Shown here: piece after piece, positions 1 to 12,893 of the stretch
Numbering within the stretch: position 1 is the first letter of the stretch
How the letters are laid out: each line of letters begins with the position of its first letter
Source of the DNA: a virus
Lineage: Duplodnaviria; Heunggongvirae; Uroviricota; Caudoviricetes
IMG/VR virus record: IMGVR_UViG_2617270988_000017
Length of the DNA stretch: 12,893 nucleotides
Reading direction: 5' to 3' (one strand)
The notes under the pieces: model-generated
What the model saw: the letters and a program-made list of their open reading frames with translations, nothing else
Told to the model about the DNA's origin: nothing
Database searches by the model: none
Made by a program: the position numbers and the translations under genes

Positions 1-1461
1 ATGAAAAAATTACTGCATCTTTTTTTCCCGCTCTCGCTGCGGGTACGTTTTCTGTTAGCAACGGCAGCAGTAGTATTGGTGCTTTCGCTTGCCTACGGAA
101 TGGTTGCGCTGATCGGTTATAGCGTCAGTTTCGATAAAACCACGTTTCGGCTGTTACGTGGCGAGAGCAATCTGTTCTATACCCTTGCGAAGTGGGAAAA
201 CAATAAGTTGCATGTCGAGTTACCCGAAAATATCGACAAGCAAAGCCCCACCATGACGCTAATTTATGATGAGAACGGGCAGCTTTTATGGGCGCAACGT
301 GACGTGCCCTGGCTGATGAAGATGATCCAGCCTGACTGGCTGAAATCGAATGGTTTTCATGAAATTGAAGCGGATGTTAACGATACCAGCCTCTTGCTGA
401 GTGGAGATCATTCTATACAGCAACAGTTGCAGGAAGTGCGGGAAGATGATGACGACGCGGAGATGACCCACTCGGTGGCGGTAAACGTCTACCCGGCAAC
501 ATCGCGGATGCCAAAGTTAACCATTGTGGTGGTGGATACCATTCCGGTGGAGCTAAAAAGTTCCTATATGGTCTGGAGCTGGTTTATCTATGTGCTCTCA
601 GCCAATCTGCTGTTAGTGATCCCGCTGCTGTGGGTCGCCGCCTGGTGGAGTTTACGCCCCATCGAAGCCCTGGCAAAAGAAGTCCGCGAACTGGAAGAAC
701 ATAACCGCGAATTGCTCAATCCAGCCACAACGCGAGAACTGACCAGTCTGGTACGAAACCTGAACCGACTGTTAAAAAGTGAACGCGAACGTTACGACAA
801 ATATCGTACGACGCTCACCGACCTGACCCATAGTCTGAAAACGCCACTGGCGGTGCTGCAAAGTACGCTGCGTTCTCTGCGTAGTGAGAAGATGAGCGTC
901 AGTGATGCTGAGCCGGTAATGCTGGAGCAAATCAGCCGCATTTCACAGCAAATTGGCTACTACCTGCATCGTGCCAGTATGCGCGGCGGGACATTGCTTA
1001 GCCGCGAGCTGCATCCGGTCGCCCCACTGCTGGACAATCTCACCTCGGCGCTGAACAAAGTGTATCAACGCAAAGGGGTCAATATCTCTCTCGATATTTC
1101 GCCAGAGATCAGCTTTGTCGGTGAGCAGAACGATTTTGTCGAGGTGATGGGCAACGTGCTGGATAATGCCTGTAAATATTGCCTCGAGTTTGTCGAAATA
1201 TCTGCAAGGCAAACAGACGAGCATCTCTATATTGTGGTCGAGGATGATGGCCCCGGTATTCCCTTAAGCAAGCGAGAGGTCATTTTCGACCGTGGTCAAC
1301 GGGTTGATACTTTACGCCCTGGGCAAGGTGTAGGGCTGGCGGTAGCCCGCGAAATCACCGAGCAGTATGAGGGTAAAATCGTCGCCGGAGAGAGCATGCT
1401 GGGCGGTGCGCGGATGGAGGTGATTTTTGGTCGCCAGCATTCTGCGCCGAAAGATGAATAA
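1..1461 (+). CDS. phoQ: Sensor histidine kinase PhoQ of the PhoPQ two-component system, complete
   Basis: The 486-aa translation reads as E. coli PhoQ essentially end to end from memory (MKKLL...[15 protein letters not shown]; periplasmic acidic patch EDDDDAEM; H-box [12 protein letters not shown]; C-terminal [12 protein letters not shown]). ATG at 1, TAA at 1459-1461. Confidence 0.97.
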
Positions 1462-1971
1462 ATATGTCCTTTTATCACCACAGCAAGGCAACCAATTGAT
1501 TTAATTAAACAACTCACACTGCAAAAAGTGCTAAAAACAGCAAATTGACTACACCATTAACTACACCGTTCGGTGCACTGTATGAAACAACGTTGAACAA
1601 ATAGACACAAGAAATATACAGGCGGGTAATCTTTCCAGGGGGAAGCGCACCAATTCATGAGGGGCGTTAATGTCGATATGGGGATCCCCATAACGGGGCT
1701 ACCAGATTTTTTTTCCGGTTAACTGTTAATCAGGCTGGTGGGCTTTACCTGTTCGGTAGGTGTTATGATTATCGTAATACCTTTCCCCCAATGGGGTAAA
1801 AGCTCCAACCGTAACGATGTTCGTTATGGTTGCCTTGATGGTCTGAGTGGTCATTTTGACCATTCAGCCAATGACCTTAATCAGAATTTTTCGCTAAAAA
1901 ATGACGTTGGCCACGTCATCCGGAAAGCACAAAATCACGTCGATTTTTAATGAACGGTTAAACCGTCTTTT

Positions 1972-2277: not shown

Positions 2278-2559
2278 TTACCGCCGTAACCGCTCCGGCT
2301 TCTTCCAGTGGTACGTAATTTTCTCCGTTTCCCGATACAGTGCCACGCGGCGATTGTAGGCCAGCATTTCAAGAACGCGGATCCGTATGTTGCGCATATC
2401 CACATCATTAAGCTGGATACCATCACGGCGCATCACCTCAGCAACAACACGCGCATAATTTTCGGCTGTCACGCTGTCCGGCTGCGTGGCCTGTTCGTCA
2501 GTCTGCTGGCTGATTCCACCAGCACGGCGGATTAATCCCAGTATTTCGGCTTCTGTCAT
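2278..2559 (-). CDS. Hypothetical protein, 93 aa
   Basis: ORF with ATG at 2559-2557 and TAA at 2280-2278. It lies just outside cos-L and reads away from it. No family recognised by eye. Confidence 0.55.
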   Translation of the reverse strand: MTEAEILGLIRRAGGISQQTDEQATQPDSVTAENYARVVAEVMRRDGIQLNDVDMRNIRIRVLEMLAYNRRVALYRETEKITYHWKKPERLRR

Positions 2560-2592
2560 TGTGCACCCATCGTTCTGATTGTCTGGTGTCGT

Positions 2593-2705
2593 CGGGTCCT
2601 TCCTGGAATTATGGACCCGTTACGGGGCGGCGACCTCGCGGTTTTTATCTGTTTATGAAAATTTTCCGGCAAAAGTCAGATCCGTTCTTCTTCTCTGTAA
2701 CAGAC
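2593..2705 (+). other. Lambda-type cos site, left copy (cos-L): cosQ-like, cosN, lambda-like cosB
   Basis: 2593-2636 reads CGGGTCCTTCCTGGAATTATGGACCCGTTACG followed by GGGCGGCGACCT, then CGCGGTTTTTATCTGTTTATGAAAATTTTCCGG...CCGTTCTTCTTC. This closely matches the lambda right-end/left-end junction as I remember it (...CGGGTCCTTTCCGGTGATCCGACAGGTTACG | GGGCGGCGACCTCGCGGGTTTTCGCTATTTATGAAAATTTTCCGG...CCGTTCTTCTTCG). The cosN 12-mer is at 2625-2636. Its packaging direction points into the 3' end of terS. Confidence 0.75.
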
Positions 2706-2723
2706 TGTTTAACAATGAAAATA

Positions 2724-2797
2724 TTAAAAAAAGAAAGGATCTGACACGAGGCATTTTAGCCAGAAAATGCCATTATCAGATCCTTTCTCATTTTTGT
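2724..2797. terminator. Bidirectional Rho-independent terminator downstream of terS
   Basis: Compound hairpin with outer stem AAAGGATCTGA (2734-2744) / TCAGATCCTTT (2776-2786) and inner stem GGCATTTT (2750-2757) / AAAATGCC (2764-2771). An A7 run at 2726-2732 gives a U-tract on the minus strand, and TTTTT at 2791-2795 gives one on the plus strand. Confidence 0.7.
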
Positions 2798-2815
2798 TCA
2801 ATAATTGCGCGTCTG

Positions 2816-3358
2816 TTACTCGCCTTTCTTCTGTAGCAACTTTTCCGGTACGTTTCCGGTTGTTTCTTTCAAGTAATCAGTCAGTATCTGTGGGAGGTTG
2901 TCGGCAACTCTGGCACTGGCATTACAGGCTTTAACCACTTCCCTTTTAAGCCTATCCAGCATGGCGGGGGTAATCTGTGGGAAGCTCCTTTGCATAGTAA
3001 GCGGGAGGCTGTCCATGATTGATGAAATCTGACTCGCCAGCTTTGAAAGCGCGTACAGGCAAAACTCAGTATCAATCACGTCACCGCGATCGCGCTCGTT
3101 TTTAAGTTCCTGCGCCTCCGCCTGTGCTGTCAGTAATCTGATCCTGACTCGTAAGAGTTCATCATCATCAATATCGCCTTTGTCGTTTGTAAGCTGGCTA
3201 ATTGCATTGTTAACCCTATTGTCTATCACGCTGGCAACATCATAAAACGCCTCACGGCCTTTACGTTCAACGGGAGTCACTCCCCACTTGTCGAACGCTG
3301 TCGCACTTACACGGCAGCTTTTCGCCATGTTTTTTTTGTTCATCAGGTGCGATTTCAT
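2816..3358 (-). CDS. Terminase small subunit, lambda Nu1 family
   Basis: The 180-aa product aligns along its length with lambda Nu1 recalled from memory: N-terminal winged-HTH region (NKKNMAKSCRVSATAFDKW vs NKKQLADIFGASIRTIQNW) and C-terminal region (LTAQAEAQELKNERDRGDVIDTEFCLYALSKLASQISSIMDSLPLTMQRSFP vs LTRAQADAQELKNARDSAEVVETAFCTFVLSRIAGEIASILDGLPLSVQRRFP). ATG at 3358-3356. Confidence 0.9.
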   Translation of the reverse strand: MKSHLMNKKNMAKSCRVSATAFDKWGVTPVERKGREAFYDVASVIDNRVNNAISQLTNDKGDIDDDELLRVRIRLLTAQAEAQELKNERDRGDVIDTEFCLYALSKLASQISSIMDSLPLTMQRSFPQITPAMLDRLKREVVKACNASARVADNLPQILTDYLKETTGNVPEKLLQKKGE

Positions 3359-3360
3359 TA

Positions 3361-3534
3361 ATACACCAACTTAATTACTGCTTCAGGTTGGTGTATTGTT
3401 TGCATCTTTCCCTTTTTATTCATAAAGATAGATCAAACAACGAAACCACCACCACCCCCCTGAAAAGGCTCATAAATAGCGAAAAACCGCTAGGTCGCCG
3501 CCCCGTAACGGGCCATAATTCCAGGAAGGACCCG
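3361..3534 (-). other. Lambda-type cos site, right copy (cos-R): cosQ-like, cosN, divergent cosB, directly upstream of terS
   Basis: 3493-3534 is the near-perfect reverse complement of 2593-2635 (42 of 43 positions, one 1-nt indel), with the cosN 12-mer AGGTCGCCGCCC at 3492-3503. On the minus strand it continues CGGTTTTTCGCTATTTATGA (lambda-like), then diverges (CAGGGGGGTGGTGGTGG) and ends in the 10-bp inverted repeat ATACACCAAC (3361-3370) / GTTGGTGTAT (3387-3396) beside the terS ATG. The cosN-cosB-terS order and orientation match lambda. Confidence 0.75.
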
Positions 3535-3535
3535 T

Positions 3536-3558
3536 AAAAAAGCCGGATTTCTCCGGCC
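3536..3558 (-). terminator. Rho-independent terminator ending the capsid operon
   Basis: Minus-strand stem GCCGGA-gaaa-TCCGGC followed by T6 (plus-strand A-run 3536-3540), 6 nt after the stop of the 137-aa ORF. Confidence 0.75.
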
Positions 3559-3563
3559 TTGTC

Positions 3564-3977
3564 TCAGATGGTTTTCAGTATGCGATCGATGTCGCCGTCA
3601 TCGCCCTGGTTTCTGCCATCGTATGCCATGCCAGCTGATACGGCTTGCGGGCTGTGCATGTCCATAAAGTTTTCAAAGGCTGCGGTAAGTTCCGGCGCAA
3701 CCTTCGGACGTTCCTGCTCTATGGTCATGCTAAGGATGCTTTTAGCCGTACCAACATCGATACAAGGCACGTTTGCCATTGCACGCAACAGCGGCTGATA
3801 GTCTTTATGCTCATGAAGCGCCATAATCGCATCAGCGCGCGGCTTGTCCTGCTCTTCCAGTTTGTTTAGTTGATATACGGCCTCATAGGTTGATAAACCT
3901 CTGTCAGCCATTGCCCGCGCTTCGACTTTAAATTTACTCGCCAGCGGTAGCGTCATGATGCTTTCATTCGTTGCCAT
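3564..3977 (-). CDS. Hypothetical protein, 137 aa, last gene of capsid operon
   Basis: ATG at 3977-3975 is preceded by a strong SD (AGGGGGAA) and follows the decoration-gene stop with a short gap. No family recognised. Inferred to be capsid-associated from context only. Confidence 0.65.
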   Translation of the reverse strand: MATNESIMTLPLASKFKVEARAMADRGLSTYEAVYQLNKLEEQDKPRADAIMALHEHKDYQPLLRAMANVPCIDVGTAKSILSMTIEQERPKVAPELTAAFENFMDMHSPQAVSAGMAYDGRNQGDDGDIDRILKTI

Positions 3978-5802: not shown

Positions 5803-5808
5803 GGGCGC

Positions 5809-5830
5809 AAAAAAGCCGGATTGCTCCGGC
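5809..5830 (-). terminator. Rho-independent terminator downstream of the 74-aa cassette ORF
   Basis: Minus-strand GCCGGA-gcaa-TCCGGC followed by T6. Same stem sequence as the terminators at 3536-3558 and 6172-6194. Confidence 0.7.
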
Positions 5831-5850
5831 TATGTGTGCTGTGTGCTGGC

Positions 5851-6171: not shown

Positions 6172-6194
6172 AAAAAAAGCCGGATTTCTCCGGC
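6172..6194 (-). terminator. Rho-independent terminator ending the replication/regulatory operon
   Basis: Minus-strand GCCGGA-gaaa-TCCGGC followed by T7 (plus-strand A-run 6172-6178), 8 nt after the perC-like stop. Confidence 0.75.
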
Positions 6195-6201
6195 TGTTTG
6201 A

Positions 6202-6895: not shown

Positions 6896-7143
6896 AATTC
6901 CACCTCTCCGGTTTTAACGTTGATGGTTGTTACCTGTTCCGCTTCGGCAATCTCCCGTTCTGTCAGCGTGGCAAAGTTTGCCGCCGCCGTGGTCATGAAT
7001 GCGCTTATCAGGTCGGGATGTTCCTTCGCGTATCCTTCCCGCGTGTGGCGGTCTATCGTTCTGATTGCCACCTTTAAGGTGTGCTCAGTCATGTCTAACG
7101 CTTTATATTTTGGCTCTGTTCTGTCTCTGCGTTTTTGGGTCAT
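6892..7143 (-). CDS. Hypothetical protein, 83 aa, translationally coupled to ssb
   Basis: In-frame ATG at 7143 (MTQKRRDR...) with SD GAGAGG. The track start at 7173 is GTG and sits in the iteron array. The stop overlaps the ssb start. Confidence 0.5.
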   Translation of the reverse strand: MTQKRRDRTEPKYKALDMTEHTLKVAIRTIDRHTREGYAKEHPDLISAFMTTAAANFATLTEREIAEAEQVTTINVKTGEVEL

Positions 7144-7152
7144 TTCTCGCAA

Positions 7153-7348
7153 CCTCTCACTTTTTCGCCTCACTTTTTCAAGCGTCTCACTTCGTCGCAG
7201 TTGGGATTTTCGGTTTTTCTATGTGTGTGTTTCATAAGTATTTTTTTACCCCTCACTTTTGAGGATGTATACAGGTCGAAAAGTGAGGGAGAGCGGGCTA
7301 ATTTTGGCCCTCTTTCTATCCCCCTCGCTTTTGCTCCTCACTTTTATA
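7153..7348. repeat. Iteron array, putative origin of replication of the element
   Basis: CTCACTTTT-type repeats at 7156-7165, 7169-7178, 7186-7192, 7252-7260, 7278-7289 (inverted), 7323-7333 (variant CTCGCTTTT) and 7336-7347, plus an AT-rich stretch at 7230-7248. It lies immediately 3' of the rep gene, as is typical of satellite and plasmid origins. Confidence 0.55.
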
Positions 7349-11651: not shown

Positions 11652-12893
11652 CTACACGGCTCGGATACCCCTTTTACCACTGGCGAGGGTTACGCCCGTC
11701 GCCGCAGCCTCGACAAATTCGCCCCACCAGCGCATCAGCACGATGCGTTTTTCTATGTAGTTGCTCCGGTTGTATGCCCGTCTAACTTCGTTGGTGTCGA
11801 CGTGGGCAAGTGCCGCCTCTATTACGTCCGGCTCGAATCCTTCCTCGTTCGCTGCTGTGCTGAATATGGCGCGTAATCCATGAGACACCAGCACGCCAGC
11901 GAATCCCATACGCCGCAATGCTGCGTTAGCTGTCTGGCTGTTCATCGGCTGCTGTGGGTCTTTCAGACTTGGGAAAACGTAATTGCGGTGGTGGCTGATT
12001 GGTTTCATGGCCTCCAGCACCGCCATAGCCTGACCGGAAAGCGGGATAACGTGATCCCTGCGCATCTTCATGCGTCCGGCAGGTATCGTCCATTGCTTCG
12101 CGTCCAGGTTGATTTCATCCCACCGCGTTGATGACGCTTCGGCGGGACGGGTTACGGTCAGTAACTGCCATTCAATCAGTAATCTGGTCTGCCGTTCTGT
12201 TGCCGATACTGATAAAGCCTGCATAAGCTCGGGCAGCTGTTCGGGGCGGATTGTTGGCATATGTTTTTTTACAGGTGAGGGAAACGCCTTACGCACATTC
12301 ATAGCCGGATTGGCATCAATCAGCCCACTGTTGGCGGCGTAATCCATTACCTCATTAACGCGCTGTAAAACCCGCTTGAGTGTTTCCAGGTTGCCGCGCT
12401 CCTTGATGGGGGTAAGCACTTCAACGAACCTTCGGGCGGTGAGGGTATCTATTGGCGTGTTGCCGATGAACGGGAATACATATTTATCCAGCGAACGCCA
12501 GATGTCTTTAATCGTGTTGGGGGCCAGATTCTGGCTGATTTTCACCTGGTACCATGCCGCCGCCACATTTTCGAACGTGTTCCCTTGTCTTCGGGCCTCT
12601 GTCTCTCTTTTTTGCCTCTCGTGGTCCTGCGGGTCAGTTCCGGCACTGATTAACGTCCTGTACTCGCTACGGCGTTTTCTGGCATCAGCCAGGGAAACAT
12701 CTTCAAGCGATCCAAAACTCAGCAATATTCTTTTTTTGTCCGATGGTCGGTAGTAGGAAAATCTCCAGAGTTTTGATCCAGACGGTTTGACCAGGAGAAA
12801 AAGCCCTCCGCCGTCCTGCAGGGTGTACTCCTTTTGCGCTGGTCTGGCTGCTTTGATCTGCACTGTGGTTAATGGGTGTGTTTTTCTCGCCAT
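11652..12893 (-). CDS. int: Site-specific tyrosine integrase, P4 family
   Basis: 413 aa with an N-terminal arm-binding-type region (KEYTLQDGGGLFLLVKPSGSKLWRFSYY) and a C-terminal catalytic domain (HGLRAIFST...RAYNRSNY). The ATG is at the last three bases of the window, so the upstream region and att site are outside it. Confidence 0.95.
   Translation of the reverse strand: MARKTHPLTTVQIKAARPAQKEYTLQDGGGLFLLVKPSGSKLWRFSYYRPSDKKRILLSFGSLEDVSLADARKRRSEYRTLISAGTDPQDHERQKRETEARRQGNTFENVAAAWYQVKISQNLAPNTIKDIWRSLDKYVFPFIGNTPIDTLTARRFVEVLTPIKERGNLETLKRVLQRVNEVMDYAANSGLIDANPAMNVRKAFPSPVKKHMPTIRPEQLPELMQALSVSATERQTRLLIEWQLLTVTRPAEASSTRWDEINLDAKQWTIPAGRMKMRRDHVIPLSGQAMAVLEAMKPISHHRNYVFPSLKDPQQPMNSQTANAALRRMGFAGVLVSHGLRAIFSTAANEEGFEPDVIEAALAHVDTNEVRRAYNRSNYIEKRIVLMRWWGEFVEAAATGVTLASGKRGIRAV

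Follow-up and report, generated by a model that had tools for sequence, protein, structure and literature searches.

The window analysed here is the whole 12,893-nucleotide stretch of the IMG/VR virus record IMGVR_UViG_2617270988_000017 (Caudoviricetes). It begins with phoQ, followed by what its genes and attachment site identify as an ~11-kb Gram-negative phage-inducible chromosomal island (PICI) of the EcCICFT073 family. The assignment follows from the attachment core AAATATGTCC, the reverse complement of GGACATATTT, which overlaps the phoQ stop codon, and from the shared locus: the core GGACATATTT and the ycfD-phoQ site are given for EcCICFT073 and EcCIRM12579 (Table S1, PMC6092414), and a close relative in O157:H7 is situated between phoQ and roxA/ycfD. 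All island genes are on the minus strand, and comprise a 93-aa open reading frame (ORF), a Nu1-like gene, a 137-aa ORF, homologues of lambda gpD and gpE, and genes for PerC, SSB, RepA/AAA_25, DUF4222, Ash, AlpA and a tyrosine integrase. The gene content is that of the family, with int, alpA, replication genes, perC and capsid homologues in ~11 kb, a specific att site, and no tail or lysis genes. Two inverted lambda-type cos sites, here named cos-L and cos-R, flank the Nu1-like gene, which encodes a small terminase subunit (TerS); this pair is the main subject of the analysis.

The 12-bp cosN sequence GGGCGGCGACCT was found exactly and only twice in the window, once on each strand and 855 bp apart (Table 1), and none of 200 dinucleotide-preserving shuffles contained two or more matches. 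The arms around the two copies (2593-2636 and 3492-3534) are identical at 43 of 44 positions, with a single 1-nt indel, and their similarity reaches 2669 and 3459 (68 identical positions over 77/76 nt). The interval contains the 180-aa ORF of the Nu1 family. On the minus strand the order at cos-R is cosQ-cosN-cosB-terS, with the cosB immediately upstream of the gene, and cos-L is oppositely oriented. The initial annotation had described two convergent cos sites bracketing a Nu1-like terS, a near-perfect inverted repeat of 42 bp with weaker similarity beyond it, and a canonical arrangement at cos-R, all of which was borne out. Its premise that convergent cos sites are not expected is outdated, since EcCICFT073 has been published with two functional cos sites (PMC6092414, PMC6739421) that form the same inverted pair.

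Table 1. Features of the window, with the components of the two cos sites
Feature	Position	Strand	Remarks
phoQ	1-1461		Start of window
Attachment core AAATATGTCC (reverse complement of GGACATATTT)	1460..1469	.	Overlaps phoQ stop codon; left island end
93-aa conserved terminal gene (phrog_1561, function unknown)	2278..2559	-	Backbone flank of cos-L
cos-L cosQ-like segment and spacer (CGGGTCCTTCC...CCCGTTACG)	2593..2624	+	Aligns with cosQ of lambda-like phages and EcCICFT073 cos2
cos-L cosN 12-mer GGGCGGCGACCT	2625..2636	+
cos-L complete phage-type cosB	2637..2800	+	R3 2674-2689, A/T-rich spacer, inverted R2 2732-2747, R1 2774-2789
Nu1-family small terminase TerS, 180 aa	2816..3358	-	N15-type winged helix-turn-helix, coiled-coil middle, lambda/PhiR5_1-like C-terminal half and 14-aa tail
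cos-R cosB cognate to island terS	3359..3491	-
cos-R cosN 12-mer GGGCGGCGACCT	3492..3503	-
cos-R cosQ-like segment and spacer	3504..3534	-
Intrinsic-terminator-like hairpin and U6	3535..3560	-	After 137-aa ORF, immediately upstream (minus sense) of cos-R
Island integrase	11652-12893		Sole recombinase found in window

An assembly artefact, such as a collapsed or duplicated repeat, had been named as what would undo the second cos copy. Nothing was found in its favour. Among 5,426 complete E. coli genomes, at least 80% of the region is covered in ~490, and cos-L together with the terS 3' end is present in 497, of which ~380 match at 95-99% identity. Given hundreds of complete, independent genomes with the structure, and its presence in EcCICFT073, which has been dissected experimentally, an artefact can practically be dismissed. 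In a set of 41 Nu1-family loci from other species, mostly prophages, an inverted downstream cosN was absent, and at most one upstream, co-oriented cosN was present. This control set was obtained by a profile scan of genome contigs, in which a single-protein scan gave no relatives.

TerS and the two cosB segments

In the prototype EcCICFT073, cos1 and cos2 flank rppA and are both functional on plasmids, and cos1 is essential and recognised by an RppA-TerS heterocomplex (PMC6092414, PMC6739421). In the sequences of supplementary Fig. S5 (PMC6092414), cos1 is directly upstream of rppA, which makes it the equivalent of cos-R, and cos2 reads into the rppA 3' end, as the equivalent of cos-L. The EcCICFT073 sequence contains two exact cosN 12-mers, inverted, around a 144-aa gene (the size of rppA) in the terS position. 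The inverted orientation of cos1 and cos2 is not mentioned in the texts or supplements of PMC6092414 and PMC6739421, and a review from the Feiss laboratory covers only the rpp-proximal cos. The two islands share the integration site, att core, gene order, backbone genes and the inverted cosQ-cosN pair around a specificity gene, with an island-specific cosB in the proximal cos and a different cosB in the distal one. They differ in the specificity gene (a 144-aa Rpp in EcCICFT073, a 180-aa Nu1-family TerS here), in the proximal cosB (ACCACCACC versus (GGT)n), and in the distal cosB, for which the EcCICFT073 authors could not identify a phage counterpart, whereas here it is recognisable as the SerU class described below. 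Terminase cleavage to 12-nt cohesive ends and packaging have been demonstrated only for the homologous cos1 and cos2 of EcCICFT073, by analogy with which cos-L and cos-R would be cut and packaged.

The island TerS matched the Pfam family Phage_Nu1 (PF07471) with 83 bits (cutoff 30) and the PHROG terminase small subunit family phrog_57 at 5e-53, and its alignment with the Nu1 proteins of N15, lambda and PhiR5_1 spans the full length, with the final ~40 residues included. Against N15 gp1, full-length identity is 46% (E = 1e-53). Identity is unevenly distributed. In the winged helix-turn-helix (residues 1-50) it is 62% with N15 gp1 and 32-42% with lambda-class Nu1 proteins. In residues 96-180, equivalent to the half that binds the large terminase subunit (TerL) in lambda, it is 57% with PhiR5_1 Nu1 and ~40% with N15 and lambda. 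In these alignments TerS is a mosaic of an N15-type DNA-binding domain and a lambda-like, predicted TerL-binding half. The candidate identification as an Rpp protein (RppA/B/C, 139-154 aa, without a TerL-binding tail) was rejected, given its 180 aa, its Nu1-like C-terminus and a BLASTP E value of 1.4 against RppA; a search against Protein Data Bank sequences, which should include the published RppC structures, gave nothing at E <= 0.01. No terL was found in the island, and TerL for packaging would therefore have to come from a helper. Since a Nu1-family TerS with a predicted TerL-binding C-terminus is present instead of Rpp, the predicted mechanism is TerS replacement and not redirection of the helper TerS. 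A promoter scan gave no more matches than in shuffles, and none for terS.

The island TerS proteins share a C-terminal tail of 12-14 aa, ETTGNVPEKLLQKKGE (2816-2860 in the window), which is absent from phage Nu1 proteins. In another locus (L011, 3154-3756) a lambda-class DNA-binding domain is joined to the same island-type C-terminal half, and the DNA-binding domain and predicted TerL-binding half of island TerS therefore assort independently.

The cosB of cos-R contains a G/T-rich R3-like (GGT)n tract at 3445-3459 (bp 45-59 from cosN), a strictly conserved inverted R2-like element, ACACCAACC, at 3386-3397, and a degenerate R1-like third element at 3361-3371, just before terS. In N15, a single critical R3 (GAGGTTGTTGTTT) is located at bp 48-59/60 from cosN (PMC4669245). 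The cos-R cosB had no match in a blastn search against phages; its relation to N15 and Monarch (R3 GGTTGTTGT) rests on short motifs, position and a megablast extension in which a Monarch/N15-type cosB aligns with it over roughly 110 bp. Compared with the cos-gene 1 region of N15/Monarch (PMC4669245), the island has in common the TerS DNA-binding domain (62% identical, AFDKWGV.PVE..GRE.F.DV.SV.DNR), the G/T-rich R3 at ~bp 48-60 from cosN and an inverted R2-like element as in Monarch. It differs in its cos-R core (GGTGGTGGT/GGTTGGTGT versus GGTTGTTGT), in the PhiR5_1/lambda class of its TerS C-terminal half, in having no terL after terS, and in the second, inverted cos downstream.

The distal site has the full layout of a phage cos. 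Its cosN is exact, a cosQ (GGGTCCTTCC...) is present at a lambda-like distance, and the complex cosB, scored by R3/R2/R1 spacing, has R3, inverted R2 and R1 starting at bp 50, 108 and 150 from the first cosN base, compared with 49, 109 and 151 in lambda. The earlier statement that cos-L keeps a lambda-like cosB is therefore upheld. The terS stop codon is at bp 192 of cos-L, and the Nu1 start codon of lambda is at bp 191. The identical cosN, the cosQ-like segment and the position and orientation of the R elements are thus shared with lambda cos-Nu1, but the R sequence is AGATCC instead of CGTTTCC and no Nu1 gene comes after the site, which abuts the 3' end of the convergent terS. The R core of cos-L, AGATCC(G/T)TTCT, is identical to the R cores of SerU-LTIIb / M8-type prophages, in which a lambda-class Nu1 gene and terL come after the matching cosB. 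These prophages use a divergent cosN region (..CACCGGGGGTCTGGGGACGCGC..; L102 2425-2530, E. coli M8 prophage; L005), and because phages with the same cosB have a different cosN, cos-L is itself a mosaic, as compared here, of a lambda-type cosQ/cosN and a SerU-type cosB. Two islands, L009 and L010, carry yet another cosN, GGGCGTCAGGCG. On these comparisons, cohesive-end sequence and cosB class are mixed freely, because the SerU/M8 prophages share the cos-L R elements but differ in cosN, and the L009/L010 cosN differs again.

Distal slots and flipped cassettes across islands

A panel of 16 islands was compared, of which ten contain terS, five contain rpp, and one (L014) has no intact specificity gene (Table 2). 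The (GGT)n...ACACCAACC cosB was found directly upstream of terS in all ten terS islands examined, and the ACCACCACC cosB was upstream of rpp in 5/5 rpp islands. The distal (cos2) slot contains at least four cosB types, or is deleted. These pairings indicate that, within the panel, the proximal cosB and the specificity gene move as a unit, and that the distal slot changes independently of them.

Table 2. Proximal and distal cosB types in the island panel
Islands	Specificity gene	Proximal cosB	Distal slot
Window, L001, L019	terS	(GGT)n type	SerU type
IHE3034, L018	terS	(GGT)n type	Phage 21/phi4 type
L008	terS	(GGT)n type	Divergent cos
L006, L007	terS	(GGT)n type	Remnant: cosQ and 8 nt of cosN, joined to terS stop
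L009, L010	terS	(GGT)n type	Empty
CFT073, L012	rpp	ACCACCACC	CATGTCCGG repeats
L013, L020, L021	rpp	ACCACCACC	N15/Monarch type, complete R3-R2-R1
L014	None intact	-	Two phage-type cosBs face to face across rpp remnants

The IHE3034 and 18098 islands encode TerS, and their cos sites and helpers were not described in the paper (PMC6092414). The IHE3034 island has the same terS and cos-R type as the window and an inverted second cos, but its distal cosB is of the phage 21/phi4 type and not SerU. The EcCICFT073 cos2 repeats CATGTCCGG / CCGGACATG differ by one base from the R elements CATGTCGG / CCGACATG of the resident helper prophage phi4 (L002 3150-3290 versus 39790-39930).

The state of the distal slot bears on whether cos-L could be a non-functional relic of island-phage cos recombination or of an inverted duplication, kept because it is cheap or serves as terS terminator. 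In L006/L007 the slot retains only cosQ and half of cosN, in L009/L010 it is empty, EcCICFT073 transfer rose when cos2 was deleted, and the cos-L R2/R1 elements fold on the minus strand into a hairpin followed by U7 (-33.7 kcal/mol, z -6.45), a plausible terS terminator by this folding; the terminator scan had overlooked hairpins that folding supports. On the other hand, the cosN is exact, the cosQ is intact, the R3/R2/R1 spacing is at most 1 bp off lambda, the cos-L segment is 95-99% conserved in ~380 genomes, and EcCICFT073 cos2 supports plasmid transduction. In addition, the four or more cosB sets in the slot are each internally complete and phage-type, which argues for repeated acquisition of intact sites and not for decay. 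A relic is considered unlikely.

Inversion of the segment was searched for by building the flip junction in silico from the arms and comparing it with all complete E. coli genomes. The junction was contiguous in five genomes (100% coverage, one piece, ~90% identity), compared with ~490 unflipped. L019 is the exact flipped form of the window cassette on the same backbone, and in L018 the flipped cassette contains terS and has a distal cosB of the phage-21 type. The cosQ-side spacer variants remain with the backbone and the polymorphisms from ~10 bp past cosN move with cosB, indicating a crossover within ~30 bp around cosN. Examination of homologous elements for cos copy number and inversion, as had been proposed, thus revealed two, one or a remnant cos across the panel and a flipped terS segment in five genomes; the suggestion that the pair bears the marks of an inversion, or of recombination with a helper cos region, was supported by these flips and by the swapping of the distal cosB among phage classes. 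In L014 (NZ_CP080260.1, 2783-3443), Monarch-type and CFT073-cos2-type cosBs have short rpp 3' remnants in opposite orientations between them; the locus would be the outcome of a rearrangement, as recombination of a flipped with an unflipped cassette could produce.

The finding of both orientations of an identical cassette on the same backbone, with the crossover mapped to ~30 bp around cosN, is what a regulated invertible switch of the phase-variation style would leave, toggling terS expression or packaging direction. However, the five flipped copies against ~490 unflipped genomes are ~10% diverged, as expected for rare old events; no recombinase or invertase gene was found near 2278-3977, the island integrase at 11652-12893 being the only recombinase found; and the flip is symmetric, with little effect on packaging from concatemers. 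Such a switch is very improbable, and the rare, diverged flipped forms look like occasional recombination.

A broader and rather speculative proposal, which we regard as unlikely, is that the cos pair bounds an exchangeable and invertible cassette, in which the distal slot would be a plug-in adaptor to the local helper cosB classes, the proximal cos and specificity gene would provide helper-independent recognition, and flipping would possibly be driven by terminase. In that case, cleavage of both cosN copies would free a 0.87-kb piece whose two cohesive ends are identical and of the left type, and which could re-anneal to the backbone in either orientation. If true, terminase-driven flipping would be a novel mode of DNA rearrangement, brought about by a packaging enzyme.

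Proposed packaging from two inverted sites

With moderate confidence, the region is interpreted as the packaging module of an EcCICFT073-family PICI in which two complete inverted cos sites, with near-identical cosQ-cosN and different cosB, surround TerS and allow packaging by two routes. Two independent packaging entry points with different specificities are most likely, as judged from the sequence comparisons, and the generation of two kinds of packaging ends, one of the possibilities raised by the initial annotation, is the most likely functional reading of the pair.

By comparison, cos-R and terS would be a cognate pair of N15/Monarch ancestry. The N15-type winged helix-turn-helix of the island TerS would bind the G/T-rich R elements in cos-R, and the lambda-like C-terminal half of the protein would recruit the helper TerL to cut cosN, with packaging proceeding leftward. 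This route would be independent of the helper TerS, unlike that of the Rpp islands. In turn, cos-L would be a helper-type cos, used directly by a lambdoid helper terminase of the matching SerU/M8-like cosB class for rightward packaging, and its slot would be exchangeable and dispensable across islands. In lambda, it is established that termination needs only cosQ and cosN in the right orientation, and that cosB is required for initiation only. Two entry sites 0.86 kb apart could then coexist only if inverted, each being invisible to a terminase translocating from the other, because with co-oriented sites at this distance a terminase started at one would cut at the other. On concatemers, either route would give whole island units. 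The inverted arms also allow the cassette to flip and to be exchanged by recombination, as the comparison across islands shows.

Several observations weigh against this two-route interpretation. The cos-L slot is deleted or absent in several terS islands (L006, L007, L009, L010). The SerU/M8-type prophages are rare (38/5,426 genomes) and have a different cosN, so that a matching helper is hypothetical, as is the helper for TerS-type islands in general, and the model for the window island rests on comparison. The exact R3 of cos-R is uncertain, given length differences of up to 6 bp in the (GGT)n tract. Deletion of EcCICFT073 cos2 raised lambda-mediated transfer, indicating that a distal cos can be a cost with some helpers (PMC6092414, PMC6739421), and the TerS islands of IHE3034 and 18098 were transferred poorly after induction of resident prophages (PMC6092414). 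The transfer cost of cos2 with lambda fits a competition between entry points when the helper is mismatched.

The phage-type, not island-type, cosB of cos-L could instead be explained by a decoy, as also raised in the initial annotation, or interference site that draws helper terminase or causes unproductive cleavage, and thereby lowers helper yield. PICIs commonly interfere with helper packaging (PMC6739421), and this island, being without Rpp, might need another interference route. However, cosB alone would suffice for a decoy, yet cosQ and cosN are intact too; a start by helper terminase at cos-L would lead to productive packaging of island DNA; and the distal cos is dispensable in several lineages. 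We consider a decoy improbable. In-situ packaging of flanking host DNA, in the manner of lateral transduction, was set aside, since cos systems need a downstream cos to terminate.

SaPI satellites also use their own TerS to redirect the helper TerL, although in Gram-positive hosts and in HNH-cos or pac systems. SaPIbov4 has been reported with two putative cos sites. These systems resemble the island as satellites with more than one cos or their own TerS but are unrelated in sequence.

The satellite family and its two cos sites were already known from EcCICFT073. The replacement of Rpp by a TerS with its cognate N15/Monarch-like cos, the recognition of the distal slot as bona fide phage cosB modules of several classes, and the natural occurrence of a flipped cassette appear to be new. 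The published model is that of one island (EcCICFT073, with Rpp and cos1), in which the role of cos2 was left open. The window and the panel suggest a general design, with a specificity gene and its own cosB, plus an inverted phage-type cos whose cosB class depends on the island. Among the genes mobilised by cos-type PICIs of E. coli are virulence regulators (PerC and RgdR, for example), and helper range decides the spread of these islands. If the two-route interpretation is correct, it predicts the phages able to mobilise the O157/O55-type island, which ~9% of complete E. coli genomes carry, explains the need for inverted sites, and offers a testable model in which lambda-like terminases are hijacked through TerS and independently of Rpp.

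Further features of the island

The 93-aa terminal gene is present in EcCICFT073 and in every panel island. It is also the last gene in at least two other satellite architectures (L015, L016, L017), one with a ClpP-protease/capsid fusion gene and the other cf-PICI-like, with HNH, P27-type TerS and TerL. A 25-nt direct repeat (2097-2121 and 2213-2237, 92% identical, 116 bp apart) is located in the non-coding DNA between the att core and this gene.

The 137-aa ORF (3564-3977, minus strand), upstream of cos-R, matches the C-terminal ~70 residues of the head maturation protease family phrog_53 (6e-9) and is a candidate Nu3-like scaffold that could bear on helper-capsid remodelling together with the island gpE and gpD homologues.

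The hairpin GCCGGAG(A/C)AAUCCGGC followed by U6-7 is present three times on the minus strand (3535-3560, 5808-5833 and 6172-6197), each time after a minus-strand ORF in the capsid/PerC region (-13 to -16 kcal/mol, z -3.1 to -4.3). These copies look like intrinsic terminators within the late operon, which suggests antitermination or segmented expression. Three copies of TTTTNCNCCTCACTTTT, spaced 83-85 bp apart, were found at 7134-7345, just 3' of the RepA/AAA_25 gene, and are probably iterons of the island replication origin.

Two related islands, L010 (NZ_CM187527.1) and L016 (NZ_CP176678.1), are inserted within late genes of prophages (one major capsid gene and one gpA gene, each truncated) and resemble published helper-embedded satellites.

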